Source of the DNA: Candidatus Poseidoniales archaeon
GTDB lineage: Archaea; Thermoplasmatota; Poseidoniia; Poseidoniales; Thalassarchaeaceae
DNA length: 64,000 nucleotides
Direction of reading: 5' to 3'
NCBI GenBank assembly: GCA_012959435.1
Contig: DUDF01000074.1
Coordinates: forward strand, 37,234 to 101,233
Made by a program: the position numbers and the translations under genes. Positions 2,711 through 29,729 of this stretch are shown here, one piece after another. The notes under the pieces are model-generated. The model was not told where the DNA came from, searched no databases, and was given only the letters and a program-made list of their open reading frames with translations. Within the stretch, counting starts at the first letter, position 1. Each line of letters begins with the position of its first letter.

Positions 2711-2764
2711 GGATTAACCTAATGTGCGCCGAGTATTATAGGTGTGCAACCCGCCCGATAAAAT

Positions 2765-3478
2765 ATGACCACAGTACTTCAGGCACAACAATTGTGGAAG
2801 ATCTACGACACAGGTTCAGTTAAGGTGAAGGCTCTCAAGGGAGTTGACTTAGATATTTCAGAGGGAGAGATGGTCGCTATAATGGGCCCGTCCGGCTGTG
2901 GTAAAACCACCTTTCTAAATTGTATTTCAAGTCTTGATGAGTTCACTGCTGGTGAAGTCTTGGTAGACGGTCAACCTCTCTCCGAGATGTCTGATAGAGA
3001 GCGAACTGACATGCGCAAAAACCGGCTTGGATTTGTATTTCAGTCTTTCAATCTGATCCCTGTTCTTTCCGCTGTTGAGAACGTTGAATTACCACTTATT
3101 TTGAAGGGGAAATCTAGCAAGGATGCTAGGGTTATTGCTCTAGATGCGTTGGATGCAGTTAGTCTAAAAGAATGGGCCGGCCATTTGCCTGCGGAATTAT
3201 CTGGTGGCCAACAACAGCGAGTAACAATTGCCCGCGCATTTGCTCATCAACCAGCGTTAATTTTAGCAGATGAGCCAACTGGAAACCTAGATACGACAAC
3301 TTCTAAATCCGTAATGGAATTACTTGTCAATTTGAATCGCAATAAAGGAATCACATTTGTTATCGTCACTCACGAAGAGGAAATAGCACGTCAATGTACG
3401 AGGCTAATAACAATCCAAGATGGCTTGATTACAAGTGATGAGAGCCTTGTGGGGATGGATGGCTCTGAAGAAGAATAA
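2765..3478 (+). CDS. ABC transporter ATP-binding protein, MacB/LolD family
   Basis: Walker A 'GPSGCGKTT', Q-loop, signature 'LSGGQQQRV', Walker B 'LILADEPT', H-loop 'VIVTHE'. The stop codon abuts the GTG start of the permease at 3479. Confidence 0.9.
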   Translation: MTTVLQAQQLWKIYDTGSVKVKALKGVDLDISEGEMVAIMGPSGCGKTTFLNCISSLDEFTAGEVLVDGQPLSEMSDRERTDMRKNRLGFVFQSFNLIPVLSAVENVELPLILKGKSSKDARVIALDALDAVSLKEWAGHLPAELSGGQQQRVTIARAFAHQPALILADEPTGNLDTTTSKSVMELLVNLNRNKGITFVIVTHEEEIARQCTRLITIQDGLITSDESLVGMDGSEEE

Positions 3479-6400
3479 GTGGAGTTGATTAACTTGTCAA
3501 ACTCTGAAGAATCATATCCCTTAGGGGGTGGAGGTAGCACATCCCAAAGGTTAGGCCGTAGTGCACTTTTCACCGTTTTATTCATTGGAATCACCTTTTT
3601 TTGTGCTAAACTGATAATTGGTGTAGTCAAATTAACCTCATATGATGGGGTTGGATTTGGTTGGTATGCAACAGCCATCAGTTTGGGATTAGTGACAGCA
3701 CTTGTTTCTCTGCAATTACTTGACTTTACTTTTTCAAGAAGAAGGAGAATGTTGGCTCAGATGGCGTTTAGCAATCTTCGCCGCCGTAAACGTAACACCG
3801 CACTAGTAATTATTGGACTTCTTATCGGCTCAGCAATTATCACCAGTAGTTTAGTTGTAGGGGATAGTCTTGATGCAACTCTACAAGCAGAATTTGCAGA
3901 AGCATTAGATGAATCTGATATTATCATCAGCGGTTCAGACCTCTTTGGGAATCCCGTTTGGATGAACCAAACAAGAATGGAAGGATATGTGGACACATTG
4001 TTTAACAATTCAAACATAGATGCAGTTTCTATTGGGATTAATATGCAAATTGGTTTGAAATCAGAATTACACAAGACGGTTGAGGCTAATGACGCTCACT
4101 GGTTGGCAATGGATGAGGATTACCAAACTCAAGGCACATGGAAACCATTTGGTGGTGATGATGGCCCCCTTTACTCAGAAATAAATGATGGAGAGGCATA
4201 CATCAGTGAGAAAGCTGCTGAAAAAATGGAATTAGAAATTGGTGATACTGTTGAAGTAAGTTGGTCCGGGGTTTCAGAAACAGGTCAGATTAAACGAGAC
4301 ACGATGAATTTGACAGTGCAAGAAATTGTGCCAACAAAAGTATCCGGCTACGAGTTTGGCGGCGATTCAACAATTTACACTAGCCTATCTCAGGCTCAAG
4401 AAATTTTAGGGCGGCAAGGTGAAATTAATCGAATAGCGATCTCAGCAATGGGTGGTGTATTTGACGCTCAAGATGCCGAAGAACGAGCATTACCTTTCAT
4501 TAATTCAACTCTTGATGAAGTAATTATAGCAGGCGATTCCGGATTAGAAATCGCAACCGTTCCAGAGGACTTCTCCTTAGCAGTACAACGAATAAGCGGT
4601 GAAGGTTTAATTTATGGAGATGAGGTTGAGAGCCTGAGGGAAAACATTACTGCGTTCTCTCCTGATGCTTCAGTTGCTGAATTGTTGATGGCACCCTTGC
4701 TCCAAATCTCAAGTAATGGTGAGAATTTAACTGGGCTGATTTCTGCGGAAGTTACTGTAATAGATTCAGATGGTATTGCTGATTGGTACGCAACTCCATC
4801 AGGACTTTCAGTTCAGATGAAAAACACTAGCCAGTGGTTCCAGTGGGTTCCACGCGGTGATGATTCAAAGGCAATTGATTCAGTACATTCGGTTAGAGAT
4901 GGCGTTGCCCTATCTTTGTACTCAGGAGGTATCCACCTTTCTGCCCTTAGTGAAGAAGAAGATTCGCGAGATATTACTATGCCCGAAGGGGATGGGGATT
5001 TAGTCAGTTTAGTGGTTACTGAGGCTGACCTTGGGGTCGCTCTTCGTATCAGTGAGAGTGGTGTAGAACTTCTCTTTGGGGAAGCCTATAGTGATGGGGC
5101 AATAGTTTGGGATTCTGCATCTATTGACATTTCTAATTTCAGCCAGGATTTAGAGGGTGGTGGGCTGGCATTAGAGGGTGATTCCCTATACCTCAGATTA
5201 GAGAGTGCTTTCGCTAGTTCAACCTGTGAAATATCTATCCAAGAAATCAATTCAGAATTTAATTCTTGCAATTGGAATCTTGACCCACCTTCAAGCCGTT
5301 CAATAGCCACTTCTGGAGGTCTTGCTTGGGACCTATACGGACAAGATTTACGGTCAACTTCTGCACGTCTTAATGGCACTCCTGTTTCAGCCCATGAACT
5401 CGGCTTACCTACGGGTGAAATCCTATCGGTTTCATCCTCTGCTGTATTCGTTGAAGAAAGCGGTCTGTTCATTTGGAATGGCACTGGTTTTTCACTTTCA
5501 GACACACAGCCTGCACAAGGCACAGACAATCGTACTTCATGGAGTGACGGGGAGAGAACCATTGCAACCTCTCCATACGGAGTCCTCATATCAGATGGGG
5601 TGAATATTACTGGCAGATTACCATATCAGATATCGATAGATGGCATCTCAAACTTGCCACTAGTAGCAATCGCTTTGACTGGTGGGGTAGGGATTCCTAA
5701 TCCTGAACCTGGTGATCTCTATCTTTCAACTTGGTCAGCAAATGGGCTAGCATTAACCCCTCCACAATCATTGCAAGTTGTTGGTTTAATGGCTGCGGCT
5801 AGAGGTATTTTCGAACCGATGGATTTCAATTACACGTTTACAGTACCTGAATTACCGGCTCCGCCAGGTCAGCCAGGGCTTGATGACATTTCAATCGCAG
5901 TAGTCAATATATCGGATGCTCAACAACTACTGAATCGAGACGAACCAGTCCGCAGTATGGTGATGGTTAGTGGCTTTGCCTTGGTGTCCAATGATAATTT
6001 ATCCAAATTAGAAGCAAACATTACCGCTTGGGCGGATGAGATATCAACAGCGGAATCAGTTGGTATCAAAACAGTCGCCCTAAAATCAGAAATTAGAGCA
6101 GCTACTGCTGATTCAGGCGCAAATTTTTCCGCACTCTTCCTAATTTTCGGTTCATTCGTCATTTTTGCAGGTGTTTTACTTGTGATGAATCTCTTCGTTA
6201 TGCTCGCTGATGAGAGGAAATCGGAGATGGGTATGCTGAGGGCGCTTGGCATGCATCGTGGAGAATTACGAGGAATGTTCGTAATAGAAGGCACACTTAT
6301 CGGCTTAGTTTCAAGTGCCGTTGGCGCTGTAGCGGGGATTGGTGTAGCCAAATTATTGATGTTAGGACTTGACCGTGTACTATCTCAAACCTTTCAACGG

Positions 6401-8239
6401 GGGATTCTCTTTTCTTGGGAATGGCACAGCCTTTTGAGTGGATTCTCAATTGGTTTCTTAGTTACTTTCATGACACTAATGGCGACCTCAATTTACATTT
6501 CGAGGCTCAATGTTGTGGCCGCAATGCGCGACATACCAATTAGAATGAAAGGTTCTCTGCCTTGGTGGACAATACTCGTCTCACTTTTCATGTTCGGTTC
6601 TGCAATAGTTTGCGTAGTGCTTGCTTTCATGATAGGAGACCCTGAAACTGGTAGTCGATATGCATGGTGGTTAACGGCTGGTTTCCTATTCCTTTTCGGA
6701 TTAGTACCTCCACTTTTCTTCATATTTTCCAAATTATTGCCAGAATCACTATCTTTCAGAGGCACACGAATTTCACGTACAGTTCTCACTCCTCGCCTGA
6801 CCATGACGATTCTAGGATTATTGATGTTCGGTTGGGGGATTTGGACCGACCCCATCAGGGCTGATTGGGAATTAGGAGATGCATCATTCATTATCTTAGG
6901 TTTATTCTTAGTTGGGGCAGGTGTGTTGTTATTGACAAGTTTAGCACCAATGATTGCACGCTCTCTAGCAAAAGCAGGCTCAAGCATCTCAGGTCGTCTT
7001 TCATCAGTATTGCCTACTGCACTGGCCTATCCATTAGCAACCCCTTTCAGGACTGCAATGACCATGGGGATGTTCAGTTTGGTGGTTTTTGCTGTAGTTG
7101 TTCTATCGGGCTATTCCGCACTTGTCGGCAACTGGCTTGGTGATATCGGCGAGGATGCGCGGGGTGAATGGGAAATAGTTGCATTCGGAGACCTTGACCT
7201 CGGAGATAATTCTAGTGAATGGGATTTAGGTGAACTACAATCCTCTGATTTTGATGCCATTGCAACGATGCATACCGCTACTATTCAGGTTTATAAGAAA
7301 GGTGAAACAGATTTGGAAAATAAATCAACGTATACGAATATACGGGGTTTTGATTCAAATTTCACGAGTTTGAACGGTTTACCCTTACATTCATGGGAGC
7401 CAAGTTTAGGAGATACAGCTGAAGATGTTTGGCAGGCTATCCTTGAAAATGATACACTTGTTGTGATAGATTACACTTTGGCTGTTGAATCTTATCAAGG
7501 TGATCGAGGTGTGATTTACGAAGGCATGGGCCTGAACATTGGTGATGCAATAATTGTCCAGGACCCTTTCAATCCTGCCATTAACTCTACTTTCTTTATT
7601 GGTGCAGTCATGAATGAGGAAAGTGGTTGGTTTGCTAGTGGGGTAAGTGTGGCAAAACCAATTGCAATTGAGCGTTTTGAGGCAACCCCTTCTTCAATCT
7701 GGTTCTCACTCCCTCCGAGTGCCACCTTAGAAGAGCAAGAAGAAGTTGCAAAAGTCTTGCAATTTGAATTAGTAGAAGAGGGTGCAATTGTGTTTGCAAT
7801 TGAAGTTCAATTCAAAGAGATCCAATCAATTATTTTCGCAATGTTTGGCCTTCTTCAAGCATTCCTAGCCCTAGGGCTAATTGTCGGTATCGCTGGACTA
7901 GGTGTAATTACTATTCGTAATGTGTCTGAACGTGCTCATCAAACTGGAATACTCAGAGCCCTTGGATTCCAACGTGGCATGGTGATTGCTGGGTATCTCA
8001 CAGAGTTGACTTGGGTGAGTCTTCTGGGCATCTTGAATGGGGCTGCTGTAGGGGTCGGTTTTCACTACCAATTGTATGTCAAATTCCTGAAGGATGAAGG
8101 TGCAGAATTTGTACTTCCTTGGGGACAGATTACTCTGATTATTTTGGGTGCTTATTTGCTCACGATTTTGGCTACTGCGTGGCCTGTCAGAAGGGCTGCA
8201 TCTATACACCCTGCCGAGGCGCTACGGGACATCGAATGA
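3479..8239 (+). CDS. Fused double FtsX-domain (MacB-type) ABC permease with very large extracytoplasmic domains, 1,586 aa
   Basis: There are two FtsX modules: 'ADERKSEMGMLRALGMHRGELRGMFVIEG' (~6120-6540) and 'VSERAHQTGILRALGFQRGMVIAGY...AASIHPAEALR' (~7800-8236). MacB periplasmic-domain-like edges are 'GEAYISEKAAEKMELEIGDTVEV' and 'IAVVNISDAQQLL'. About 745 aa lie between TM ~aa 107-129 and the first FtsX bundle. Confidence 0.8.
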   Translation: MELINLSNSEESYPLGGGGSTSQRLGRSALFTVLFIGITFFCAKLIIGVVKLTSYDGVGFGWYATAISLGLVTALVSLQLLDFTFSRRRRMLAQMAFSNLRRRKRNTALVIIGLLIGSAIITSSLVVGDSLDATLQAEFAEALDESDIIISGSDLFGNPVWMNQTRMEGYVDTLFNNSNIDAVSIGINMQIGLKSELHKTVEANDAHWLAMDEDYQTQGTWKPFGGDDGPLYSEINDGEAYISEKAAEKMELEIGDTVEVSWSGVSETGQIKRDTMNLTVQEIVPTKVSGYEFGGDSTIYTSLSQAQEILGRQGEINRIAISAMGGVFDAQDAEERALPFINSTLDEVIIAGDSGLEIATVPEDFSLAVQRISGEGLIYGDEVESLRENITAFSPDASVAELLMAPLLQISSNGENLTGLISAEVTVIDSDGIADWYATPSGLSVQMKNTSQWFQWVPRGDDSKAIDSVHSVRDGVALSLYSGGIHLSALSEEEDSRDITMPEGDGDLVSLVVTEADLGVALRISESGVELLFGEAYSDGAIVWDSASIDISNFSQDLEGGGLALEGDSLYLRLESAFASSTCEISIQEINSEFNSCNWNLDPPSSRSIATSGGLAWDLYGQDLRSTSARLNGTPVSAHELGLPTGEILSVSSSAVFVEESGLFIWNGTGFSLSDTQPAQGTDNRTSWSDGERTIATSPYGVLISDGVNITGRLPYQISIDGISNLPLVAIALTGGVGIPNPEPGDLYLSTWSANGLALTPPQSLQVVGLMAAARGIFEPMDFNYTFTVPELPAPPGQPGLDDISIAVVNISDAQQLLNRDEPVRSMVMVSGFALVSNDNLSKLEANITAWADEISTAESVGIKTVALKSEIRAATADSGANFSALFLIFGSFVIFAGVLLVMNLFVMLADERKSEMGMLRALGMHRGELRGMFVIEGTLIGLVSSAVGAVAGIGVAKLLMLGLDRVLSQTFQRGILFSWEWHSLLSGFSIGFLVTFMTLMATSIYISRLNVVAAMRDIPIRMKGSLPWWTILVSLFMFGSAIVCVVLAFMIGDPETGSRYAWWLTAGFLFLFGLVPPLFFIFSKLLPESLSFRGTRISRTVLTPRLTMTILGLLMFGWGIWTDPIRADWELGDASFIILGLFLVGAGVLLLTSLAPMIARSLAKAGSSISGRLSSVLPTALAYPLATPFRTAMTMGMFSLVVFAVVVLSGYSALVGNWLGDIGEDARGEWEIVAFGDLDLGDNSSEWDLGELQSSDFDAIATMHTATIQVYKKGETDLENKSTYTNIRGFDSNFTSLNGLPLHSWEPSLGDTAEDVWQAILENDTLVVIDYTLAVESYQGDRGVIYEGMGLNIGDAIIVQDPFNPAINSTFFIGAVMNEESGWFASGVSVAKPIAIERFEATPSSIWFSLPPSATLEEQEEVAKVLQFELVEEGAIVFAIEVQFKEIQSIIFAMFGLLQAFLALGLIVGIAGLGVITIRNVSERAHQTGILRALGFQRGMVIAGYLTELTWVSLLGILNGAAVGVGFHYQLYVKFLKDEGAEFVLPWGQITLIILGAYLLTILATAWPVRRAASIHPAEALRDIE

Positions 8240-8313
8240 TACAAAATTTATGTACCAAAATCAATACGATTGTGCGTTTACAAGTGAATTACCTAACAAA
8301 GACTCGCGCATAG

Positions 8314-8321
8314 TATAAATA
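8314..8321 (+). promoter_or_regulatory. Candidate TATA box (TATAAATA) for the 8366 gene, with a GGAGG Shine-Dalgarno-like motif at 8353-8357
   Basis: 'gcgcatagTATAAATAtgg' sits ~45 nt upstream of the ATG. GGAGG lies 8 nt upstream of ATG 8366. Confidence 0.4.
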
Positions 8322-8365
8322 TGGATTGAACAGGTGGGGTAATCCCTTAGTGGGAGGACTGTGAC

Positions 8366-11300: not shown

Positions 11301-11617
11301 ACACCACTGCTGATTCTAGCATGGATATTACAATGGACAGGCACTCAGGATCTGGTGTCTTCTACTACTCAGTAGCAGCAGTTGATTCAGTTGGTAACAT
11401 GGAGACAGCAGCCTCCACTGCAGGTTTGAGATTCACTGATGACAGTGGGCCAGGCGTGAACGTTGACGACACTATCGGTGTTGAAGGTGGAGAAGGAGAA
11501 ATCCCAACCCAAGCTTGGATTGCAATCGGCATACTTGTCCTAGTGGCAGTTATCGCAGGTGCATTCATCCTAACCCGCGGTGGCGGCGAAGGCGATTCCG
11601 ACGAATTTGACTACTGA
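8366..11617 (+). CDS. Secreted, C-terminally membrane-anchored cell-surface protein (CARDB-like N-terminal domain, FN3-like C-terminal repeats), 1,083 aa
   Basis: Signal peptide 'MKRATSLVLALLMLMSIVASL'. CARDB-like 'GEEVLFDIVIKNDGDNDISELTVTVTV'. FN3-like units '...IDLSWNITN...YEFLVRVENG' and 'IHFTWSATD...YYSVAAVDSVGN'. C-terminal TM 'AWIAIGILVLVAVIAGAFIL' followed by 'TRGGGEGDSDEFDY'. Confidence 0.7.
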   Translation: MKRATSLVLALLMLMSIVASLNPIELNEKEQVDDTNGRADYEVWLMGANSPRESTTDMTGTVRNSVDAGEEVLFDIVIKNDGDNDISELTVTVTVSPKSNSSSLLINAEDAAVCDDIISCGIQNFASGDYLANGHYIVRDSTGANLAWTPAVPGMYTIHIEIDAADQDTNLNNNILDYDVDVVDWYDISTELTWDSGDDPMSGAGPHGFTMTAFVNGSAEWAPRDVQMDVTMNGLFQAFHDDGTNTNPVSMFSTTSDGANSGPMENCPQGPGASSCTWTVNFGELFGAGQNLTTNDIEVFSNLSMEPPTLEMASDRGETRQVPDFQTAYTFAGTIQGDSANANGVGTFTVMSSLSKYTMYEMISTEDQSGAHPPAAPTITMEERDHTLDDRNGNNDALITATFASYHDAQVINVEAGNPRQESGRLDAGMTRLFATIAHSGSDRNINYDWMVMFNVKDSNGDDIMGSPFPATECDNPDDPEGSTSHEYLGEMFPATLEATACNTIMIDPGMFSVSATVNLIDASMTDGDNATDCTLSTTPDCKVDMNTANDMRTGHFEVLNSGPSAYLTMDEVEGDIIDGTHITFSARAEHLSQPDMDMDGNPDPFGYMWSMSGNEMDPQLDMCSGQQDPMTGNVMGGSPDCTVDMNLMWLGSPTMIVTVVDYWGADASAQLTFNVWNNYSNVNSGDCWSAEYDILYAGNQQYTAQFSDADGVTNQELPGSTARYDSVCAFEMEVSGILAPTDVNSEDLTVTLDADPTVGHSLWYEGGTGWVELAGTTQTQVDADTINLSWSNDGTLPSRSSSRYAVFASATIGQPPLIGVDSLTATLSTAGVIDLSWNITNQQLTGAGDFGVLYVNDAGAALDGTRSTFELTTTTHTISGTHGTTYEFLVRVENGQVGADDSALYGTPVDSGSATADGQVDPTAGAADLEAVSSGESSIHFTWSATDTSDVNNWLICWSPAQHTSLEVSSLITAGNCHTTADSSMDITMDRHSGSGVFYYSVAAVDSVGNMETAASTAGLRFTDDSGPGVNVDDTIGVEGGEGEIPTQAWIAIGILVLVAVIAGAFILTRGGGEGDSDEFDY

Positions 11618-11673
11618 AGTTGAATTGGAATAGGAAGCAACAACACAAAGACCCGCATTAGCGGGAAACCCTC

Positions 11674-11713
11674 GGACAGGGGGCCCTACGGGCCCCCTGT
11701 CCTTTTTCATTTT
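11674..11713 (+). terminator. Perfect 13-bp stem / 3-nt loop hairpin followed by a T-rich run
   Basis: ggacagggggccc-tac-gggccccctgtcc (11674-11702), then tttttcatttt. It lies 57 nt after the stop of the 8366 gene. Confidence 0.6.
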
Positions 11714-12090
11714 CAGGACTCAAAACTTTTCGATTCGTTTAGAACTTTAAATTAGTGAATGCACAAACACCGATCATCAATGATGTACAGATTATCCGAA
11801 TTAATTCAATAATAAGTGATTATCAACCAATTCAAGAATTTATTGTCAACCGCATCGATTCAAAATATTAGATTTTTTTATACAAAATAGCGAGGGATTA
11901 TTACTAATTCATGGCATTAGAAAAAGTGTTACAAAACGTTTGTACTACATTTTTTCTCGACTTTTTTTAACATTCAATAAGGCCGCCGTACTCCATTCCA
12001 AATTAAAGCATCAAAGGATACGTACCCATATCGTTATAGGCGCGACAAAGCGTGCGAAGGAGTGTTATACGACAGTTTGGGGTATGAACA
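11714..12090 (+). promoter_or_regulatory. Long AT-rich non-coding leader/promoter region upstream of the giant gene
   Basis: About 377 nt with no ORF of note. Several TATA-like elements are present (e.g. 'tttttttatacaaaata' ~11873-11890, 'gttataggcg' ~12042, 'gttatacgac' ~12063). An imperfect direct repeat TCAACC..ATTCAA occurs at ~11822-11866. Confidence 0.3.
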
Positions 12091-18000: not shown

Positions 18001-21000
18001 ACTGACTTAGTTCTTGATGGATGCAAGTTGCACTTGAATGGAACAAAGATAATGATTAACCGCACAGCTAACAATAACCCAACAATCACTATCCAGAACG
18101 GAGGCGAACTTCTGCTCTCCGAAGGTGGTGGCGAAGTTGGTAACATGAAGGCAGTGACCAGCGCTTACGGCTGGGAGATGGAAATCCAAAAGGGCGGTAC
18201 TTTCGTTGTAGATAACGGATACATCCGAGGTATGCATCAGAACTCCAATACTGGAGGGGCGATGAATGTCGGTGAAGGAACGCTTGAGTTGAAGAATGGC
18301 GCCATAGTTTACGGTAGTCAAACAACTTCAGCAACAATGGCGACCATCAAGGTTGATGGAGGAACTCTGTTAGTTAACGATGCGAGTGTATACAATGCAC
18401 AGCAGACTGGTGTTGGTGTTTGGATAGAAAATTCCGGAACCAGCGCCATTCAGAACATCGGTGTAACTGGAGCAGCTACTGGCGTAATGATCAAGGATGC
18501 AGCCCCAGCAATTGACGGCTTCACCCTGAATGATAACACAGTTGGTGTAGAAATTGATGGCGGAATGACGCTACCAAGTATCTACCGTTCAACTCTACTA
18601 TCAGGTCACGCACGCGGTTGGGAAACTTACGAAATTGATTTGACTGGATTGGCAAGTAATTACAATTACATCCAATTCGGTTTCAACAACGTCTACATGG
18701 GCGGAAATGTCCACCCAATGTACAACTACTACACAAGTCGTTACTTCGCAATGCACGACCGAATGCGCATCGGACTCAATGATGGAATTGATGATGATGG
18801 TGATGGTTTTGGTGATCAGATTGAGAATTTCACAACGGATGCTGCTGGAAAAGCAATGACTGGATACTATGACTCCGGTTTCACTTCAAACGTTGGTGAC
18901 AGGAATAATCCAAATCATCCTTCAAGAAACGATGGATGGGCGACTTACGACTGCAATTACTACGGCTATCAATACAGCCCAGGTGGTTCCTATCAGTATG
19001 GTTACTACTACTACATGAACAACTACGGACCTTACACTAATTCAGGTAACTACTACGGTGCAAACTCTTACCCAAGCGACTTCGGGTACACAATCGAAAA
19101 GGCAGAGGGTCTGACAGGTTCACAGAACTACTACCCGTACGAGTACTGGGGTTACTACTACACACCATACCATGGTGGATATGGTGACTTCATGCCACCA
19201 GAGGGCTACAACGGTCTTTGGGGTAACTACAACGTATGTCTATCATACGCATACCGTTACCAGACACCTACACCAAACGGATGGCAAATGGCTTGGCCTA
19301 TTGTTGATGTTAGCAGTGCAAGTGTAACTGAGGCAGCAGCATACATCGATATCCTACACAACTACGCAGATTACTACGGAGACCGATATGACTTCGTATT
19401 CCGTGGTGGAAGCACTGTCAATGATTTGATGGACGCAAACTGGGGTAGAGAATTTGGAACTGCTACACTAGCAAATGGTGTAATTGATGGTTCAGATACA
19501 GGTATTCACCTTGCTGGCAACTATGCTGCTGGTAGTTTGAGCACTGTTACAGTCAATGACCCTGTGAATGAGGGTGTATTGGTTGACGGCAGTTCATCTG
19601 TTGAATTGGATGGCTTAACAGTCAACAACGGTCGCTATGGTGTCCGTACAACTGCAGCAGCAATTGGTTCATTGGAGTTGACTAACGCAGCTCTAGACAA
19701 CCAATCTCAAGACGGTATTGTTCTAGCATCTGGACTTAAGATGGACCTAAGTGGTTCAATCACCAATGCTGCAGGCGCTGCAATCAATGTTCTACCATCA
19801 AGTACGAAGGAATGGGGCTTCAATAGCCTAACTCTTACAGACAACAACATTGCTCTGAATAACGACGGTTCTGGAGAAGTTACCTGTACTGATTGTACTA
19901 CTGGTACCAATACAAACGATGTTGTAACATCAGGTTTGGTTACTTGGGTTGAAGGAGATATTGATCTAGCCACGGTGGTAGCGACGGGTTCAGGACTCTT
20001 GCAAAGAGCAAGGTTGCTGGACGTAACTATCACTGCAGATGGCAGCGGTGTCAGTGGAACTGGAGTGAGCATGATTGATGCCAATAGTAGACGCGTGGGC
20101 TCAGGTGAAACTGACGGTGCGGGTACAGTGAACGATATGCTGTTCCACACCAATTATGTTGATTCTTCGGGATGGACTGTGGTGAATTTAGCCGGATACG
20201 AAATAATGAGTGTTGCTAAAGTTGCTTACAGCACAACTGTTGCTGATTTCAGATATGCTAAAACTGGTATAACTTTGGTTGATGGGCCAGGTAACTCTGA
20301 TACGGTAGCACTGGTGGATCGGTTTGATGCACATGTTTGTTACAGTTGGACTTCAACTTCGTATAACGTGTTAGCATCTTGTGCTGGTGCCAATTATATT
20401 GGGACTGGGAGTTCTAGGACCAAATTGAATGGTGATGGTGCCGGAGGTACGATAACCGAATATGGTTACTTTGCAGCGATACCAACAGATATGACGAACA
20501 AAGCGATTCTAATTGACTCGCCTTACCTATATACTCCTACGAGTGGAGCATCATTCAATGGTTCAACAGTTATCGTTGCAGGATTCTACAACAATGAATG
20601 GTCTGATTTGTATGTACAAAATTATGCAGGTGATATCTACCTAGATGACACGACGTGGGCAGCAATTAGTCCGAAGGAAACAGCCTTCTTCAACTTAGGA
20701 TATTACGGTGGTTACAGTTACGGTAATTTCTTCGTTAACGATTCAACGCTGATTAACGTTGGTGCTGTTGGAAGTGGTGCTGGTTATTACAACCGTAACC
20801 CAGAGATGCATGTTACTAACAGCGTGTTAGTATCGTACTCTCAGTTGGATGATGTACAATCGGTATATCCAGAAGAAATCTGTATCCAGTCAGCTGGAAC
20901 AGATTATGGTGACTGGGAAGTTCATAACAACACTATGTACGACTGTACTGTTGGAATCATGATTTACTCTAACTACTATGCAACCAGCCCTGCCTATGGT

Positions 21001-24000
21001 GGATCTGGGACAGATGGTGCACACTGGGCTGACAACACAATGTATGACAGCACATACCTGCCAATCTGGATTTACCTACAATCTGATGCAGATGACTTAC
21101 TTATTGAAAACAACACTGTAACTGGCTCAAAGAGAGTACAATACGGTATCTACGCACAAGACAATCGTCTGAACAGTGTAGAGATTCGTGGTAACACTCT
21201 GTTGACTGCTGATGAACCTATCTACATGCGTAATGCTAAGAATTGGGACATCAACAATAACACAATCAAAGGTGATGCAAACTCAGCCCACTCTGGTATT
21301 TATGTCAGAAACGGTGAAGGTTCAATTGCAGATAACACACTGATTGATGCAGATGGCGGAATCAACGTTTACGGTATCCGCTCTGGATATGATGTGGATA
21401 TCTCAAGAAACACTGTTGGTGCATCTGGTGGACGTGTTTCACCAACTGCAACAGGTATCTATGTAGAGAACTGTGGACTTGCAGAAGTTACAATGTCAGG
21501 CAACCATGTCAGCACAACATCTAACGCTCTATTGTCAGATGGTTGTGACGTATCTGATGTTGGCAGTACATTCGCCAGCGCAGGTGGTTCAGCTTCACAG
21601 ATTCATTCTGTGGACATTGAGGCGTCTCAATTTAGTCCAACAATTAAGAACATCTCAACAGGTGATACAGTTCGATGGATATTGACTCAATACAACAGCG
21701 ATCCTAACAACTACCAGCACTCAACAACCAGTAACACCTCTGGACTTTGGGACAGCACACCATTGAACTTGGGCTCAACATTTGCCCACACGTTCACAAC
21801 TGCTGGCACCTATGAGTACCATTGTAGTGTTCACAGTTTCATGAGTGGTGTAGTCAATGTGGCAAACAGTACAGGTAGCAGCAACTTGCAAACATACGGA
21901 ATTGACATCCTTGACGGAAGCGAGGACATCTCCCTTGATGGTACTACCATCGGCGGATTTAGCCTAGCATACCGACAAGACGGTGGTTCTCTCAATGTAG
22001 AGGGCGGCTCAGTTGTCACAGGTGACAACGGTTTCGATTTGACCAATGTTGACATAACAGTTGACGGTCTAAGTGTATCTGCAGACAGTGGATTTGGTAT
22101 CGGTATGGACGTTTCGTCTGACACCGGTCGCCACACATTGGATGTTGCTAACATGGATACATCTGGTGGCATTGGTATGCTAGTTGATGGTCATGATGAT
22201 TTCCGCTGGAATGGCGGTGACTCAACTGCAACTACAACTTTGAAGACACTTAGTGGTGCATCAGGTACGATTGAGAACATGACTGTAACAACAGATGGTC
22301 CATGGAGATCCAACCACGGTGGAAGTATGACCCAGATTAATGCTGGAGCATACTCAACCATCACTAGCGTTGGAAACACACTCAATGAGAGTATGTTGAC
22401 CATTGGAACCAGTGCGGTCATTCACGAGGGTAACCTCCTTGACCTAACAGTTACACACATGGGTGGAGCAGCAAGCAACGTTGGATTGATGATTAAGTCA
22501 ACCGACCTTGGTCGCTCAGAATATGTCAGCCCATCGTGGCGCTCTAACATCATCTCCGTTGGAGAAGGTGCAAATGGTGCAGCAGCAGTTACTGACTGGT
22601 TCGTAAGTCATCCACTTGGAGCGTATAACATTGCAGACGATGCAATGCCTGGTCCAGTTGCGGTCAACCCTGACCCAACTAGCCAAGCAATGGGATACAT
22701 GACTTGGGATAACTCAAATCTGTACATCGCGCTAACTGGAGTGACTTTCTTGGTCACAGACGGTATGTGGTATCTTGATACCCAGCAAGGTGGTTCAAAC
22801 GTTGGTGACAATTGGTATGTCAGTCACAATCTGCCATTCGAGGCAGATTATATGCTATGGGCAGAGGACCTAAACAACTGGGGTATCCGTAAGGTTATGC
22901 CTGGTGGAAACTGGGTTGATGTTACAGCAGCATGTAATGGTATGCAAGCAGCACCTGGTTTCGGTTACCCAGGAGTCACTCCAACATGGAGTGGTATCTC
23001 TGAGTTCGCAATCCCATGGGACTGTATTGGAAGCCCAACAGGACGAATCAAGACTCTAGCAATCATCCAGAACGAAAACTCTGGTCACGTGCTTGGTGTT
23101 TATCCACCACAGCTATGGAACCAGACTAGTGGAGCCGCTCAGACATTCGGTGACTTCGGTACACTGCAATTGACTGGTAGCGATTTGGCTGATGGTACTC
23201 TAGATGATTACCTGCTAATCCACCGAACCTTCACAGCGACTGGCGCAACAACACCTCGCGCATACGATGTGACTGTTAAGGTACGAGACGCAGATAACAT
23301 CTATTGGGACTGGGGTACACATAGTTCGCTAGCAATGGATCAGAATCAGGATATCACAATTGATATCTTACGAGCAAAGCCAGCTATTGCTGACTTGGTC
23401 GATGTATCATACGATGAAGATTCAGGGGCGCATACTGTGACGTTGACTGATAAGGCTGCAGATTACCAGCAGCCATCGAGTACACTGTCATGGACTGTAA
23501 CTAACGATGCTACAAACCCAAGCAATGCAACATCACCATACGCCTACGATTTGACTGGTCAGACAATGACCATCACTCCAGATGCGAATGAGTTTGGCAA
23601 CCAGAGACTATTCTTGGTTGTCACTGATGGACATGGCTTGTACAGCACTCAGTCAATGCTTGTTGGAGTAGAGAACGTCAATGACGCACCAGTAATCAAC
23701 AACCCACGACACTCAGCCGGCCTACCAGTATTTACTGAAGGCATTGATGTCAATGGTAATGCGGTTTACAACTCATACGATGAACCTCAGAGGACACATC
23801 CAGTGACCGGTGAGGAGAGAGAATGGGATCTGTTAACCAAGTTCTTGGGTGGCGCATCTGGTGAAGGATTTGTTCAAGATTTGGGACTCGGCGATGGTCT
23901 AGCGAATGAGCAAGACAGGAATGCTGACAACAACACTGAGCAAGCACCTCAAACCTACACATGGACAGCAGTTACTGACCCAGTAGATTGTACACCATTC

Positions 24001-26004
24001 GACGTAAGCATCAATGGCGGAACCACTCTAGAAATTGACCTCAACGAGGCAAATGAAGACGGTGGTACCTGTAACATTGTATTGGACCTTTCAGACGGTG
24101 CATCAGTAAATGATGCAGCGACAACAATAAGTGTACCATTCACTGTTCAGCCAACCAACGATAATACTCGTATTATCCCATGGGATGTAAACAACGGTTC
24201 AGTCATTAGCACTAAGTATCTAGATACTAATGGTGACAAGGTAGATGGTAACATCAGACAAACTAGTCAAGCAGCTAACAACGATGGCGATGCTTGGTGG
24301 TGGTCTGTGGATGAGGACACAGAGGACTCTGACCTACTAACCATTGATTTGACAGATATGATGAGTGACAACGATAACACCAACGAACAACTATACTGGA
24401 CTATCGATGACTCTCAGTACTACACTGACAAGTGTTCATACGAGAATTACTTCTCAGTAACAATTGACAACACTGAACATACAATGGAAATCGATTTGAT
24501 TCCTGATGCAACCACAGATGCAACAAGCAGCGAGTGGGATATGCTACAGGATGCAGACGGTGATGGTATACCAGATGATGGTATCCACCAGAAGGCACCA
24601 AGATCTGGTGACTACTGTCTGATGAATCTAATTCTGTGGGACCCTGTCTCACAGAGTGAAGTACCACAGTATGATTACGTACAGTCAGAGGCTTGTGAAG
24701 CACTTGACCTAGATGGCGATGCAGCAACCAACTGTTATGCACAGACTCACAGTAACCACGAGTTAAGCATCAATGTCCACAACCTAGTGGAATTGCGACC
24801 GGACTACAACTTCAACGAAGTACGTGTAGCTCCTGATGCGTTTGACTTCAAGGGAATTAACGGTGTTCTGCGCGAAACTATGGTACCAGTGTCTGTTGAA
24901 CTAAAGCACACAGATGGTGACGAGCCAATCAACACAGATGGTACATACAAGTATCTTTACGACCTTCAAGTGTCATTCTATATCGTTGACACTGATTGTG
25001 CAGGCTGTGATGGTACATACCAGAGCAGTGTAAGACTTGGAAGCAATGGTCCAGGAAACGGTGCACTAGCACTACCTGACTACGGTGGAACAGTTGAGGT
25101 TGGCAATTACGTCCGAATGAACAAGACATCTGAGGATGTTCGTGTGTTCGTAGACATAATGACAGTGAATCCATTCACTGGTCAATACACTGACAACTCG
25201 AAGTACGAGAGACCAGCTCTAGAAGAGAAGAACTGGGCAGACAACAACATGACTGCTTCAGGAACTAACAGCGAGTTACCACTAATTGTGGAGACCAAGG
25301 CAGCACAGAGTGTTGCTTCGTTCGCTCCAACATTGATGGCAGTCGGCCTAGTCGGCGTATTCGTTGGTGCTCTACTCAGCCGCTCTCGAGCGGAAGAGGA
25401 CGAGGAAGAGTTCGAGGAGGAATCATTGATTGACGATGACCGTGCAGTTAGCCCGGTTATCGCAACCATCCTTCTTGTGGCAATCACAGTCGTCTTGGCT
25501 GGTGTAATCTACGTGTGGGCAGGCTCACTCGCAGATACCAGTACCAAGGGAGTACCACGGTTGACCTTCTCTGCAGAAGCAATTACTGTACAAGAGATCA
25601 GTGGACTACAACAGGACCAATGGCACTGGAGAGTTACCACAACATATGCAGCGACAGATCTAGCCACTCAGGCAGTGACAGTCTCGGTATTGTGGACCAA
25701 TGCTAGCGGACAGCAAGTGTACAAGACTGCACTAGCACCTGGTGGTGGCGATGAAGAGAATGTATACGGATTCGCACCTCGTAACAGCGAGAATATGGTG
25801 ACCTTCTGGGATGACATATCTCATTGTGAGCGCGGTGGTGCACCTTGTATCACAACCTTCGGACCTGGTGACAGAATCTTCATCAGAATGACTGACAATG
25901 ACGGTCTCATCGACTCGGCATTGATTGACATTCAGTACGAATTGCCTGGTGGCGCTGCGTACATGTTGAAGCAGTACACTGCATCACCAACCAGCATACG
26001 CTGA
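12091..26004 (+). CDS. Giant mosaic cell-surface protein / putative adhesin, 4,637 aa
   Basis: One uninterrupted 13.9-kb ORF. Signal peptide is 'KVTFGGSWLLLTLLMIGMSWSAAV'. It carries multiple parallel beta-helix-like repeat blocks, a cupredoxin domain, cadherin-like 'VENVNDAPVI' modules, a 'DADGDGIPDD' Ca-binding-like motif and Tyr-rich tracts. The C-terminus is a TM anchor followed by a pilin-like module. Confidence 0.85.
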   Translation: MVTKKNKVTFGGSWLLLTLLMIGMSWSAAVSPVTENLQTSENDGAESIDDLLTLPGDVINPADNDEFGYDAGAELIGSRTETAKTFLKGDGDFEVIVSPVPVHYLDDGAWEEIDLSIESNEEGWSVTQNTFETYFGNDARQGVQMVVNGVSIRYGIMPQIVVLDGNTLSPEPYMAKPSSEPIDVGGNVIRYPMLSGISLDYKVTPTQLKQNLVIREAPNLLDHQKESGYFGIAETMILPAGYAIFLGESPIADGELVKTNQSLSIRNLDTGEELVAIPQPLVESVEPSEEGPHIGEYVIRVQGDQVTLTTVVENTWLMDSDNRSFPIAIDPTMDKGAQRAGYAYYYRITRWGWYTSTYEYAYSTSSLGYTCRGSGSGANSCTSGSYTWYYRYTWYRFDFNSALPTGATVNSVDFKSSVGRYQSGARNFEVAVLKSGSSQSSNMIDPSSYLYSSGRYLNRYIRNSAASSSSTSLSDPGYYWNGGNVRSIGLNTNGVDDVQDAVDGNGAGGTGNILGLGLRNTANAPFWYWCMTSYYSYYGCTSAAKYPHLHLDYSGGSDTEPPEDTFVPYTGLITHRAEQRTFWLSLKDTTGVDTTTNGGPSLSYSVDNGTWTNVHATALGTCLAGYWCNFRAVIPAVQDGEYVEYFWAFQDLKGTLAGTTGSPNFKTLPVGGTGSPSSVTAPSSPYNYFVQPDDQADATNSDGTPNNKWQLKIDQLTNFRYYSVYRYFDEQITYYEDTQEYIWEYDTSNCGTGNYQCFNTGASYEMRYSPTVSSYSYSNCAQSATCVVTKPTGLSMTGQNGPGMSTIWWYNAAEGAFTVVGLDDETGIDQPVSSSPVGTQGGGRNCDDCYSAVPIPGDITMKFGSLSVNASYTSSRNTRNHFCVNSNNHPLYFLSSGSSNPYCLYSYSTYRYDRQFNGWMAPGFDGRWSANTDIFQKVSSVRPVPDIFPPEFDHTGLMDTHSVDDRTVTVGMKDAGDPPSGMNTSSGTDANGVLEGPHLLYRVYNASSSSWGNWITRAMAQEAGKTRAQCEQMDCDWSTSIPGTDRDNSVEYSIHAKDILGNWNNSTATSYLIGTPTQVFTVEWHDMNCGFGQQYKCSYQIKMYDVTNEIEYHYDTGSSAYYDYETIGYQKGGSSLIGATLRERGPGYIAGANPYANNFRIATDGNNHANEKMAPGMTELYNYDEVFTGNSNGNPYTYYCTRYWYNYRNQCAEVIDVPAGFDIDYFGTTYSGNSSDKLHVIRHGAAAFSTSTSTTPMQMAYYGWGSNWPTMPNSGSYARNAMLTPWFGYYGAYYCYNGGSNECSIRTKTIPFDGAGMDVYADITQDTIWDIEMSPIRVVPSGDYLRVTANLVIDAGVEVQFAPGKGLDMAGTCSRLTTQGNATHPVSVSNLGNGNGKGFAFTSGCADTDDRHMFNNTDFSNLDVAISAGSRHGNAPHHNGNVGNFTFDTVTFTDVGTAIKHGSGTGTGFDLSGVSITNATNSCIDLPDDAVLSWLEGSATNCNMGSSSTEGAIKTGDGSDIYLENLTINDAAHNGVFGEAMSIHASNVSMSTSGLSSTEVGGTALGQTSLATTGSSFFANNIDAAGYANAIVSYATDSMSMTDISGGSISLAPGGTAGTMLGDSGWSASGITSTGNMVMSRTTPGSMDNVDLDGYLRMDGTASTGDMVSLTGLVADGITIAGCGWNVRADEADLGDATNGVWATASCTSSSASSTLTVAGGSMDGSSSNANIIYARNAKVTVADVAITGQTSSGAYVAQASTNGDVRLIGVSWRGLDCADAAGWTGMSDCWVDVSSSSGALYVGGTANVAAYRVMNFVPVFVADHSVTTTTVSTSGTCPGAACVVTDVTSVGTSNTDSSGNAIVWLLQDKLEKVSGSTSVTDSYTDHRIAIAGGAGQNETGPADVWYSPTCLINSMDCSMPLSPGDQVYIKLEAFPQDWNGATKNCAFLNSNTSVSNGYYLYTMQIITLSTDLVLDGCKLHLNGTKIMINRTANNNPTITIQNGGELLLSEGGGEVGNMKAVTSAYGWEMEIQKGGTFVVDNGYIRGMHQNSNTGGAMNVGEGTLELKNGAIVYGSQTTSATMATIKVDGGTLLVNDASVYNAQQTGVGVWIENSGTSAIQNIGVTGAATGVMIKDAAPAIDGFTLNDNTVGVEIDGGMTLPSIYRSTLLSGHARGWETYEIDLTGLASNYNYIQFGFNNVYMGGNVHPMYNYYTSRYFAMHDRMRIGLNDGIDDDGDGFGDQIENFTTDAAGKAMTGYYDSGFTSNVGDRNNPNHPSRNDGWATYDCNYYGYQYSPGGSYQYGYYYYMNNYGPYTNSGNYYGANSYPSDFGYTIEKAEGLTGSQNYYPYEYWGYYYTPYHGGYGDFMPPEGYNGLWGNYNVCLSYAYRYQTPTPNGWQMAWPIVDVSSASVTEAAAYIDILHNYADYYGDRYDFVFRGGSTVNDLMDANWGREFGTATLANGVIDGSDTGIHLAGNYAAGSLSTVTVNDPVNEGVLVDGSSSVELDGLTVNNGRYGVRTTAAAIGSLELTNAALDNQSQDGIVLASGLKMDLSGSITNAAGAAINVLPSSTKEWGFNSLTLTDNNIALNNDGSGEVTCTDCTTGTNTNDVVTSGLVTWVEGDIDLATVVATGSGLLQRARLLDVTITADGSGVSGTGVSMIDANSRRVGSGETDGAGTVNDMLFHTNYVDSSGWTVVNLAGYEIMSVAKVAYSTTVADFRYAKTGITLVDGPGNSDTVALVDRFDAHVCYSWTSTSYNVLASCAGANYIGTGSSRTKLNGDGAGGTITEYGYFAAIPTDMTNKAILIDSPYLYTPTSGASFNGSTVIVAGFYNNEWSDLYVQNYAGDIYLDDTTWAAISPKETAFFNLGYYGGYSYGNFFVNDSTLINVGAVGSGAGYYNRNPEMHVTNSVLVSYSQLDDVQSVYPEEICIQSAGTDYGDWEVHNNTMYDCTVGIMIYSNYYATSPAYGGSGTDGAHWADNTMYDSTYLPIWIYLQSDADDLLIENNTVTGSKRVQYGIYAQDNRLNSVEIRGNTLLTADEPIYMRNAKNWDINNNTIKGDANSAHSGIYVRNGEGSIADNTLIDADGGINVYGIRSGYDVDISRNTVGASGGRVSPTATGIYVENCGLAEVTMSGNHVSTTSNALLSDGCDVSDVGSTFASAGGSASQIHSVDIEASQFSPTIKNISTGDTVRWILTQYNSDPNNYQHSTTSNTSGLWDSTPLNLGSTFAHTFTTAGTYEYHCSVHSFMSGVVNVANSTGSSNLQTYGIDILDGSEDISLDGTTIGGFSLAYRQDGGSLNVEGGSVVTGDNGFDLTNVDITVDGLSVSADSGFGIGMDVSSDTGRHTLDVANMDTSGGIGMLVDGHDDFRWNGGDSTATTTLKTLSGASGTIENMTVTTDGPWRSNHGGSMTQINAGAYSTITSVGNTLNESMLTIGTSAVIHEGNLLDLTVTHMGGAASNVGLMIKSTDLGRSEYVSPSWRSNIISVGEGANGAAAVTDWFVSHPLGAYNIADDAMPGPVAVNPDPTSQAMGYMTWDNSNLYIALTGVTFLVTDGMWYLDTQQGGSNVGDNWYVSHNLPFEADYMLWAEDLNNWGIRKVMPGGNWVDVTAACNGMQAAPGFGYPGVTPTWSGISEFAIPWDCIGSPTGRIKTLAIIQNENSGHVLGVYPPQLWNQTSGAAQTFGDFGTLQLTGSDLADGTLDDYLLIHRTFTATGATTPRAYDVTVKVRDADNIYWDWGTHSSLAMDQNQDITIDILRAKPAIADLVDVSYDEDSGAHTVTLTDKAADYQQPSSTLSWTVTNDATNPSNATSPYAYDLTGQTMTITPDANEFGNQRLFLVVTDGHGLYSTQSMLVGVENVNDAPVINNPRHSAGLPVFTEGIDVNGNAVYNSYDEPQRTHPVTGEEREWDLLTKFLGGASGEGFVQDLGLGDGLANEQDRNADNNTEQAPQTYTWTAVTDPVDCTPFDVSINGGTTLEIDLNEANEDGGTCNIVLDLSDGASVNDAATTISVPFTVQPTNDNTRIIPWDVNNGSVISTKYLDTNGDKVDGNIRQTSQAANNDGDAWWWSVDEDTEDSDLLTIDLTDMMSDNDNTNEQLYWTIDDSQYYTDKCSYENYFSVTIDNTEHTMEIDLIPDATTDATSSEWDMLQDADGDGIPDDGIHQKAPRSGDYCLMNLILWDPVSQSEVPQYDYVQSEACEALDLDGDAATNCYAQTHSNHELSINVHNLVELRPDYNFNEVRVAPDAFDFKGINGVLRETMVPVSVELKHTDGDEPINTDGTYKYLYDLQVSFYIVDTDCAGCDGTYQSSVRLGSNGPGNGALALPDYGGTVEVGNYVRMNKTSEDVRVFVDIMTVNPFTGQYTDNSKYERPALEEKNWADNNMTASGTNSELPLIVETKAAQSVASFAPTLMAVGLVGVFVGALLSRSRAEEDEEEFEEESLIDDDRAVSPVIATILLVAITVVLAGVIYVWAGSLADTSTKGVPRLTFSAEAITVQEISGLQQDQWHWRVTTTYAATDLATQAVTVSVLWTNASGQQVYKTALAPGGGDEENVYGFAPRNSENMVTFWDDISHCERGGAPCITTFGPGDRIFIRMTDNDGLIDSALIDIQYELPGGAAYMLKQYTASPTSIR
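20911..21566 (+). other. Domain within giant CDS: right-handed parallel beta-helix (PbH1 / NosD-like) repeats
   Basis: Periodic ~22-aa repeats: 'HNNTMYDCTVGIMIYSN', 'ADNTMYDSTYLPIWIYL', 'IENNTVTGSKRVQYGIYAQ', 'IRGNTLLTADEPIYMRN', 'INNNTIKGDANSAHSGIYVRN', 'IADNTLIDADGGINVYG', 'ISRNTVG...GIYVEN', 'MSGNHVS'. Confidence 0.6.
21595..21870 (+). other. Domain within giant CDS: amicyanin/plastocyanin-like cupredoxin with a complete type-1 copper ligand set
   Basis: 'SVDIEASQFSPTIKNISTGDTVRW...YQHSTT...FTTAGTYEYHCSVHSFMSGVVNV'. Candidate ligands are His3210 (21718), Cys3245 (21823), His3248 (21832) and Met3251 (21841). The C-x2-H-x2-M spacing matches amicyanin 'YDYHCTPHPFMRGKVVV'. Confidence 0.75.
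25315..25380 (+). other. Predicted transmembrane anchor of the giant protein (aa ~4409-4430)
   Basis: The hydrophobic stretch 'SFAPTLMAVGLVGVFVGALLS' is followed by 'RSRAEEDEEEFEEESLIDDD' (25381-25440). Confidence 0.6.
25426..26004 (+). other. Archaeal type-IV-pilin-like (Pilin_N/DUF1628-type) module encoded in frame at the 3' end of the giant CDS; possible nested or independent CDS from TTG 25426
   Basis: '(L/M)IDDDRA-VSPVIATILLVAITVVLAGVIYVWAGSL' matches a class III signal peptide plus hydrophobic pilin helix, followed by a ~185-aa domain. GGAGG at 25416-25420 lies 5 nt upstream of the in-frame TTG. Confidence 0.7.
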
Positions 26005-26018
26005 ACTGTGTAATACGA

Positions 26019-26065
26019 AGCGCCTTCGGGCGCTGAATGCAGGGATGCTTGGGGGCTTCGGCCCC
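26019..26065 (+). terminator. Two short GC hairpins, each closed by a C(UUCG)G tetraloop, just after the giant gene stop
   Basis: agcgcc-ttcg-ggcgct (26019-26034) and ggggc-ttcg-gcccc (26052-26065). Confidence 0.45.
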
Positions 26066-26119
26066 TGAGCACCCGACCTTCCGTGATAGAGCGTGAGCTC
26101 TGTATCGGTAGGATGATTT

Positions 26120-26175
26120 GGCCCCGCCTCCGTTCGGCATCTGCTGAGCGGTGGTGGGGCCTTTTCTCTTTTTTA
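26120..26175 (+). terminator. Long-range GC stem followed by a T-rich tract
   Basis: ggccccgcc...ggtggggcc (9 bp with one G-U), followed directly by ttttctctttttt. Confidence 0.5.
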
Positions 26176-29656: not shown

Positions 29657-29729
29657 TGGGCCCGGGCGGATTTGAACCGCCGATATTCGCCTTGTAAAGG
29701 CGACGTCATAACCGCTAGACCACGAGCCC
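29657..29729 (-). tRNA. tRNA-Val (anticodon UAC), 73 nt, no encoded CCA
   Basis: Reverse complement is GGGCTCG-TG-GTCTAGCGGTTATGAC-G-TCGCC-TTTACAA-GGCGA-ATATC-GGCGG-TTCAAAT-CCGCC-CGGGCCC-A. Confidence 0.9.

Follow-up and report, generated by a model that had tools for sequence, protein, structure and literature searches.

An ABC system next to two anchored surface proteins in Candidatus Poseidoniales: probably three separable units rather than an obligatory machine

Does an ATP-binding cassette (ABC) system that is encoded on the same strand as two large surface proteins act on these proteins, or is it only their neighbor? The question is raised by a 23-kb locus in a stretch of 64 kb (here called the window; contig DUDF01000074.1) from a genome of Candidatus Poseidoniales (Marine Group II, MGII), family Thalassarchaeaceae. 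Four consecutive open reading frames (ORFs) on the plus strand, encoding an ABC ATPase, a double-FtsX permease, an anchored protein referred to below as gene 3, and a giant surface protein, make up 23,240 nt, or 36% of the window according to the ORF list. This is the arrangement described in an earlier note on the same DNA, which went on to suggest that the ABC machine has a dedicated role in extracting, releasing, remodelling or positioning the two surface proteins. A literature search found no description of the 23-kb locus.

We will argue that the locus is not an obligatory machine but consists of three expression units, which are separable from each other and have remained neighbors by descent from the ancestor of Ca. 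Poseidoniales. We assign this reading a probability of roughly 60%. A dedicated but dispensable role of the ABC system takes the larger part of the remainder, and the rest goes to narrower or unforeseen readings.

To examine how the neighborhood is conserved, an alignment of gene 3 orthologues was scanned against one genome per prokaryote species, which gave 80 loci. All of these belong to Ca. Poseidoniales, the one contig labelled Verrucomicrobiales being evidently misbinned. The nearest loci are labelled Thalassarchaeaceae (MGIIb), and the more distant family includes Poseidoniaceae (MGIIa) together with CM001443, the original MG-II genome. The permease lies upstream of gene 3 in 72 of the 74 evaluable loci, and the giant lies downstream in every evaluable case (71/71); a permease orthologue was found in 40 of 41 close relatives. 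The order ATPase, permease, gene 3, giant on one strand is kept in all 20 neighborhoods compared, which cover three families and ten genera and across which the identity falls to ~30% for the permease and ~25% for gene 3. Gene 3 and the giant were never found apart, and they are the real conserved pair of the locus. A contig deposited as 'Verrucomicrobiales bacterium ARS100' (NZEQ01000015.1) carries gene 3, the permease and the giant, and is probably a misbinned archaeal contig.

The flanks provide a control for this conservation. Upstream of the block are the genes for a DedA/VTT protein, a PIN nuclease, TatA and a ThiS-like protein, and downstream those for a HAD hydrolase, the small subunit of DNA polymerase D (DP1) and CinA. 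These seven unrelated housekeeping genes are as syntenic as the block itself. The adjacencies DedA-PIN (19/19 loci), PIN-TatA (20/20), TatA-ThiS (20/20) and DP1-CinA (11/11) are always kept, HAD-DP1 is kept in 11 of 13 loci, and CinA-PCMT in 4 of 11. The four-gene block is contained in an eleven-gene stretch that has stayed unrearranged since the ancestor of the order. Because the flanks are equally syntenic, the conserved order of the four genes carries no information beyond regional synteny. The neighborhood conservation that the earlier note proposed to look for does exist inside the order, but it does not rise above this background.

The source genome itself makes an exceptionally large investment in big surface proteins. 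In its 2.2 Mb (77% complete), 148 ORFs reach a length of 800 aa or more, and dozens of these encode a signal peptide and a C-terminal transmembrane (TM) helix followed by a basic and then an acidic tail. With 148 ORFs of this size in the genome, chance adjacency of the ABC pair to such genes is not negligible.

Two loci are the exceptions among the 74. In JABIHC010000107 (Saanich Inlet) and PSPT01000002 (Guaymas), gene 3 and the giant come immediately after the ThiS-like gene, with precisely the two ABC genes missing, and a permease homologue was not found anywhere in either genome. The two genomes represent two species of one genus of Poseidoniaceae, g132 (G365/G366), called the ABC-less genus below. 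The giant of one species is read as an uninterrupted frame of 4,549 aa, and that of the other is split by contig ends only. Between the two species it has 94% protein identity, a dS of 0.185 and a dN/dS of 0.18 (synonymous divergence and the ratio of non-synonymous to synonymous divergence; first 1,780 codons), and it is under purifying selection in this genus. The [FW]DY tail of gene 3 and the TM-linker-pilin segment of the giant, both discussed below, are unchanged. The context in front of gene 3, TATAAATA ... GGAGGACTGTGACA-ATG, is also the same as in the window, conserved between families and here placed directly after ThiS, and the surface genes are presumably expressed from their own promoter in this genus. 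As the surface genes were kept by selection after the loss of the ABC pair, the ABC machine appears not to be required by the surface proteins.

Other losses inside the order take the whole block. In a census of 286 Poseidoniales genomes that are at least 80% complete, the permease is present in 190. The largest group without it is formed by Thalassarchaeaceae genera with small genomes (1.3-1.6 Mb); gene 3 and the giant, the latter searched in pieces, were also not found in any of the 13 permease-less genomes of this group that were tested, one of which consists of a single contig. At seven of seven block-less loci, PIN, TatA and ThiS are followed directly by HAD and DP1, so that exactly four genes are gone. 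The seven genomes form one clade in a tree of the flank proteins (SH-aLRT 100), sister to a block-bearing genome, which points to a single deletion event. In two Poseidoniaceae species (G292:C117 and G298:C20) the permease and the N-terminus of the giant are absent, and an inversion breakpoint is located between HAD and DP1; the block may have been lost here independently a second time, as seen for the permease and the giant N-terminus. In two other genomes (G284 and G371) the lack of a permease match is due to contig ends alone, which lie next to gene 3 or the giant.

Outside the order, the permease was not found in the sister family of the same class, and the three genomes tested there were also without gene 3 and the N-terminal 2,900 aa of the giant. 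The double-FtsX homologues of other Thermoplasmatota are 960-1,280 aa long and align to permease residues ~720-1586 only, which implies much smaller first ectodomains. At 20 such loci, an ATPase gene lies immediately upstream of the homologue in 18; 17 of the loci are surrounded by unrelated small genes, a protein of more than 1,000 aa is nearby in 3, and a gene 3 homologue in none. The earlier note had considered that ABC pairs in unrelated contexts, with no enrichment for adjacent surface proteins, would speak against its proposal, and this is largely the situation encountered here. These homologues may not be functional equivalents of the window system, since they lack its enlarged first ectodomain.

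We now consider the expression signals, whose coordinates are collected in Table 1 together with those of the genes and domains. The stop codon of the ATPase gene (TAA, 3476-3478) directly abuts the start codon of the permease gene (GTG, 3479), and order-wide the spacing of the two ranges from overlapping frames to ~50 nt. The TATA-like element in front of the ATPase is situated 24-31 nt 5' of the start, inside a 54-nt divergent gap to the ThiS-like gene. The 76-nt segment around the hairpin that follows gene 3 has a folding energy of -40.7 kcal/mol (z -6.5). Of 18 genomes, 16 have a strong GC hairpin 3' of the gene 3 stop codon, usually with T-runs next to it, and its stem sequence varies between families. 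The entire gap between gene 3 and the giant has a GC content of 0.37 in the window, and its length is 236-489 nt in all 18 genomes compared. The hairpins after the giant have no Rfam match and are probably a compound terminator. Judged from these signals, the ATPase and the permease would be coupled, and gene 3 and the giant would each be a unit of their own, three units in all. The TATA box and Shine-Dalgarno sequence before 8366, the hairpin at 11674 and the 377-nt AT-rich gap before 12091, to which the earlier note drew attention, are all present. A highly transcribed 'ftsX-like permease' of Poseidoniaceae has been published (PMC9723583), but it is not the permease of the window, as it has 1,147 aa and its ATPase lies downstream. 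The Rfam scan of the window returned nothing beyond the two tRNA genes that bracket the region.

Table 1. Positions of the genes, domains and signals in the 64-kb window.
Feature	Position	Strand	Basis
tRNA genes bracketing the region	792-866 and 29657-29729	-	Rfam RF00005, 54 and 68 bits
TATA-like element TATTATAG, putative promoter	2734-2741	+	read from sequence
ABC ATPase, 237 aa	2765-3478	+	Pfam/NCBIfam profiles; intact motifs
Double-FtsX permease, 1,586 aa	3479-8239	+	Pfam, hydropathy scan, PDB sequence matches
First ectodomain (ECD1), aa 128-884, 757 aa	3860-6130	+	hydropathy, AlphaFold2 model, Foldseek
Beta-propeller-like insert in ECD1, ~aa 414-734 (approximate bounds)	4718-5680	+	DSSP, propeller matches
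Second ectodomain (ECD2), aa 1217-1450, 234 aa	7127-7828	+	hydropathy; MacB_PCD in two stretches
Putative promoter of gene 3, TATAAATA (8314-8321), and Shine-Dalgarno sequence GGGAGGA (8352-8358), before ATG 8366	8314-8358	+	sequence
Gene 3, 1,083 aa	8366-11617	+	hydropathy, AlphaFold2 model
Terminator-like 13-bp GC hairpin (11674-11702), then T-runs	11674-11713	+	folding
AT-rich non-coding gap before the giant, putative promoter region	11714-12090	+	sequence
Giant surface protein, 4,637 aa	12091-26004	+	Pfam, NCBIfam, hydropathy
At least three GC-rich hairpins after the giant stop (GCGCCTTCGGGCGC, GGGGCTTCGGCCCC and a longer one with a T-run at its end)	26005-26175	+	sequence

The ATPase matches PF00005 with an E value of 2e-34, and its Walker A (GPSGCGKTT), signature (LSGGQQQRV), Walker B (ILADEPT) and H-loop motifs are intact. 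The best family matches are LolD, YbbA and MacB, in line with its previous designation as a MacB/LolD-type protein, and it remains below every NCBIfam equivalog cut-off: the top match, LolD, reaches 242.7 bits with a cut-off of 307.75, and YbbA reaches 223.7 bits. The nearest solved relatives are Spr0694, MJ0796, LolD (212 bits) and YbbA (196 bits).

The permease, which is single-copy in the source genome, is matched in two stretches each by the Pfam families FtsX (PF02687, 105.4 bits, cut-off 25.5) and MacB_PCD (PF12704, 54.8 bits, cut-off 27). A simple hydropathy scan gives ~14 TM helices with a 1+3 pattern that occurs twice. Two N-terminal helices are followed by FtsX unit 1 (one helix, ECD1, three helices), ~4 linker helices, and FtsX unit 2 (one helix, ECD2, three helices). 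The protein is a single-chain, pseudo-dimeric double-FtsX permease of type VII (MacB fold), and the coupled frame of 1,586 aa with ectodomains of ~745 and ~240 aa that had been read from the sequence before is recovered here with domains of 757 and 234 aa. The best PDB sequence matches of the FtsX units are to LolF; those to MacB are weak (E 1e-4), and YbbP is absent from the matches at E <= 0.001. The NCBIfam lolCE score, 71.4 bits, is far below the equivalog cut-off of 362.45.

Structure prediction for the ectodomain, suggested in the earlier note, was carried out for ECD1 with AlphaFold2 on an alignment of 18 orthologues (mean predicted local distance difference test score, pLDDT, 78). The best Foldseek match of the model is the N-terminal domain of LolE (5udf, E 1.7e-8, target TM-score 0.69), and the periplasmic domains of LolC and MacB are also found. 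At residues ~290-610 of the model (~320 residues) DSSP assigns strands only, and this all-beta stretch resembles the propellers of the BT4663 sensor, WD40 proteins and virginiamycin B lyase (target TM-score 0.5-0.55). In the model, ECD1 is thus a Porter and Sabre fold of the LolE/LolC/MacB kind that is interrupted by a propeller-like insert. A word-indexed search of 5.8 billion proteins returned ECD1 relatives only in proteins of 1,517-1,630 aa, and the enlarged ectodomain is therefore lineage-specific.

Gene 3 encodes a signal peptide, ~10 beta-sandwich domains of the immunoglobulin (Ig)/FN3 kind, a C-terminal TM helix (aa ~1048-1070) and a 13-aa tail, by which features it is predicted to be a type-I anchored membrane protein. 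Its AlphaFold2 model (pLDDT 70) is an all-beta string of sandwiches ending in the TM helix. The earlier description as a CARDB/FN3-like protein has only sub-threshold Pfam matches behind it (DUF11, E 0.0016; fn3, E 0.0039). The structure matches are generic, comprising domain strings of the Robo, PTP-sigma, contactin, mastigoneme and alpha-2-macroglobulin types. The cytoplasmic tail is RGGGEGDSDEFDY (window 11576-11614), and its end, D[FW]DY-COOH, is invariant across the order although the identity of the ectodomain goes down to ~25%. A TM helix with a [FW]DY-type end is found in no other ORF of the source genome, and the tail may be a binding or sorting motif.

The giant has a signal peptide, a large ectodomain that includes a cupredoxin-like domain, and a TM helix at aa 4411-4429. 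Past this helix follow an acidic cytoplasmic linker, a helix like those of archaeal type IV pilins, and a domain of ~150 aa (aa ~4449-4637). The C-terminal module (aa 4411-4637, window 25321-26001) is the best-conserved part, with 45-69% identity order-wide, the overall identity in Poseidoniaceae being only ~33-36%. The pilin-type helix reads AVSPVIATIL(L/M)VAITVVL. At the putative prepilin-peptidase site the -2 residue varies between R, A, E, G and M, and as it is not conserved as basic, cleavage of the tail is uncertain; the TM and pilin-type helices may form a simple membrane hairpin. For both surface proteins, the ordinary signal peptides and TM anchors seen in the hydropathy profiles suggest insertion of the Sec type. 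We also considered a TM-Arg-acidic 'EF' tail, supposedly common to both surface proteins, as a docking signal for the ABC system. This idea was rejected, since such tails are common among the surface proteins of the genome, and since the gene 3 [FW]DY tail and the giant linker are unchanged in the ABC-less genus. In the thermoplasmatotal genomes G117, G170 and G186, many secreted proteins of 1,200-2,400 aa carry a TM-linker-pilin tail.

Taken as independent units, the three parts of the locus would work as follows. Unit 1 would be a bicistronic type VII ABC machine with the MacB/LolCDE/YbbAP fold, in which a pair of LolD-like ATPase subunits sits on the two coupling helices of the single-chain double-FtsX permease. 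Binding and hydrolysis of ATP would open and close the stalk helices and thereby move both ectodomains, a mechanotransmission that family membership suggests (PMC5985334, PMC7668044, PMC12646458). The movement would be put to work on a target located in the outer leaflet or beyond the membrane, for which the propeller-like insert of ECD1 would be the likely docking surface. Unit 2 would be a type-I anchored string of Ig/FN3 domains with a promoter and terminator of its own, and unit 3 the giant with its TM-plus-pilin-like tail. Unit 1 could be dispensed with while units 2 and 3 persisted without decaying, which argues that it is not needed for the biogenesis or anchoring of the surface proteins.

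A number of observations weigh against independence and have to be set against this. All four genes were lost together, with intact flanks, in the Thalassarchaeaceae clade, and among the 190 permease-bearing Poseidoniales genomes the ABC pair was never seen without the surface genes. The insert-bearing ECD1 is as specific to the order as gene 3 and the giant, and this shared restriction indicates a co-origin that independence does not predict. Type VII systems often encode their extracytoplasmic partner next door, as with TesA and YbbAP (PMC12646458). In G117:C26 (4180-39774), five tandem proteins of 1,500-2,400 aa, each ending in a giant-like TM-linker-pilin tail, directly precede a MacB-type pair. 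The ABC-less genus has weak points as well. Gene 3 is split into 120 + 930 aa in PSPT01000002 (L152:5664-8763), which reflects an error of the assembly or else incipient decay, and it is intact in the other species. Both genomes are metagenome-assembled and only 80-85% complete, and a relocated copy of the ABC genes is therefore still conceivable. A facultative accessory would accommodate the order-wide adjacency and orientation, the co-origin of the ECD1 insert, the clean joint loss with no ABC pair retained alone, the G117 array and the YbbAP-TesA precedent. Here the ABC machine would act on gene 3 and/or the giant via its propeller ectodomain and improve fitness while being dispensable, its possible jobs being regulated release or shedding, repositioning, or quality control of the membrane anchors. 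The co-origin, the lack of any genome with the ABC pair alone and the G117 array favor such a role weakly. It is countered by the deletion of the ABC genes alone, which left the surface genes intact and under selection with anchors and tails unchanged, by the separate promoters and terminator of the units, by the flank synteny that strips the adjacency of its weight, and by the four-gene co-loss being a single event. A general pairing of pilin-tailed proteins with MacB-type pairs was rejected, because the array of G117:C26 is the only case among ~8 such loci in other Thermoplasmatota: no ABC pair was found near the seven others in the stretches fetched (G117 C1, C2, C15 and C37; G170 C9 and C35; G186 C2). 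On balance we regard the facultative role as possible but doubtful.

Stronger and narrower forms of a dedicated role fare worse. That gene 3 and the giant could not be inserted, extracted or positioned without the ABC system has in its favor only proximity, shared orientation and the order-wide four-gene order; two species that lack the ATPase and permease both at the locus and genome-wide keep a full-length, selected giant, with gene 3 intact in one of them, and the signal peptides and anchors are such as Sec-type insertion would need, so this option is highly improbable. By analogy with LolCDE, which pulls lipid anchors, the ABC system might instead extract or process the pilin-like helix of the giant and replace the assembly ATPase and platform of type IV systems. 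The conservation of the TM-linker-pilin tail, the tandem array with the same tail beside the MacB-type pair in G117, and the block-less clade, which gave no pilin-like matches at all, would fit this. Against it, the tail shows full conservation in the ABC-less genus, an ABC pair is lacking near most of the large proteins with pilin tails in G117, G170 and G186, and the variable -2 residue leaves cleavage unsupported, which makes such a function very unlikely. The dedicated role put forward in the earlier note is thus retained as far as the order-wide adjacency goes; its obligatory form is contradicted by the ABC-less genus, and its facultative form is at most a tentative possibility. What weakens it is the synteny of the flanks, the unrelated contexts outside the order, the deletion of the ABC genes alone, and the signals that gene 3 and the giant have for themselves. 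These results favor thus the reading of three separable units.

The uncultured MGII group counts among the most abundant archaea of the plankton, and its cell surface and particle attachment are known from gene lists only. The 23-kb locus is ancestral to the order and was lost as a unit in a streamlined clade of Thalassarchaeaceae. Its type VII permease is unusual in being a single chain of ~14 TM helices with a propeller-bearing ectodomain, and it is without a described function in archaea. The analysis also corrects an over-reading: the adjacency reflects regional synteny, and, as a natural deletion indicates, the surface proteins can be kept in the absence of the motor. The ABC-less genus provides a ready-made comparison for testing the role of the motor. 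It is conceivable, if doubtful, that the locus holds an undescribed and dispensable envelope device, in which the propeller of the 14-TM type VII motor grips the anchors of both surface proteins and mechanically releases, repositions or proof-reads them. Such a device would be the archaeal counterpart of FtsEX or LolCDE, with proteins and not wall or lipids as its target.

Finally, we compare the window system with the characterized members of its superfamily. FtsEX, with its partners EnvC, PcsB, CwlO and RipC, was the basis of the working model in the earlier note. It is likewise a type VII ABC system; no substrate crosses the membrane, and the ectodomain instead exerts mechanical control over an extracytoplasmic protein (PMC7668044). 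FtsX is, however, a homodimer of small 4-TM subunits, and its partners activate peptidoglycan hydrolases, a function without relevance for an archaeon that has no cell wall. From MacAB-TolC and BceAB, the MacB fold is known together with a nucleotide-binding domain of the LolD kind and the principle of mechanotransmission (PMC5985334). The fold and the nucleotide-binding domain are shared with the window system, and BceB is also a single chain, with 10 TM helices. In contrast to MacAB-TolC, the window system has no adaptor or exit duct, and its matches to MacB are weak; in contrast to BceB, which has one large ectodomain, its permease has two.

LolCDE is closer in several respects. The N-terminal domain of LolE is the best fold match for ECD1, LolF is the best PDB sequence match for the FtsX units, and LolD is the best NCBIfam match of the ATPase and, after Spr0694 and MJ0796, among its closest solved relatives. 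On the other hand, the window proteins score far under the equivalog cut-offs (71 vs 362 bits for the permease and 243 vs 308 bits for the ATPase), the two halves of the permease are fused in one chain, LolC and LolE have no propeller insert, and there is no outer membrane as a destination for lipoproteins.

The closest characterized architecture to the window permease is that of YbbAP, a type VII ABC system of E. coli whose partner TesA is encoded next door (PMC12646458; PDB 9GE6-9GE8). The window permease has ~14 predicted TM helices compared to 10 in YbbP, four linker helices and two extra N-terminal ones being present, and its ECD1 is ~3 times larger and carries the propeller-like insert. 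YbbP gives no sequence match to it at the threshold used, the host is an archaeon without a periplasm bounded by an outer membrane, and the genes next to the ABC pair encode ThiS and TatA, the Ig-string protein and the giant rather than a hydrolase. What the two systems have in common is one ATPase gene together with one long permease that fuses two 4-TM FtsX units via linker helices, two ectodomains of the Porter/Sabre type, each placed after the first helix of its unit, and ATPases that are closely related by both the match to the solved YbbA and the NCBIfam score.

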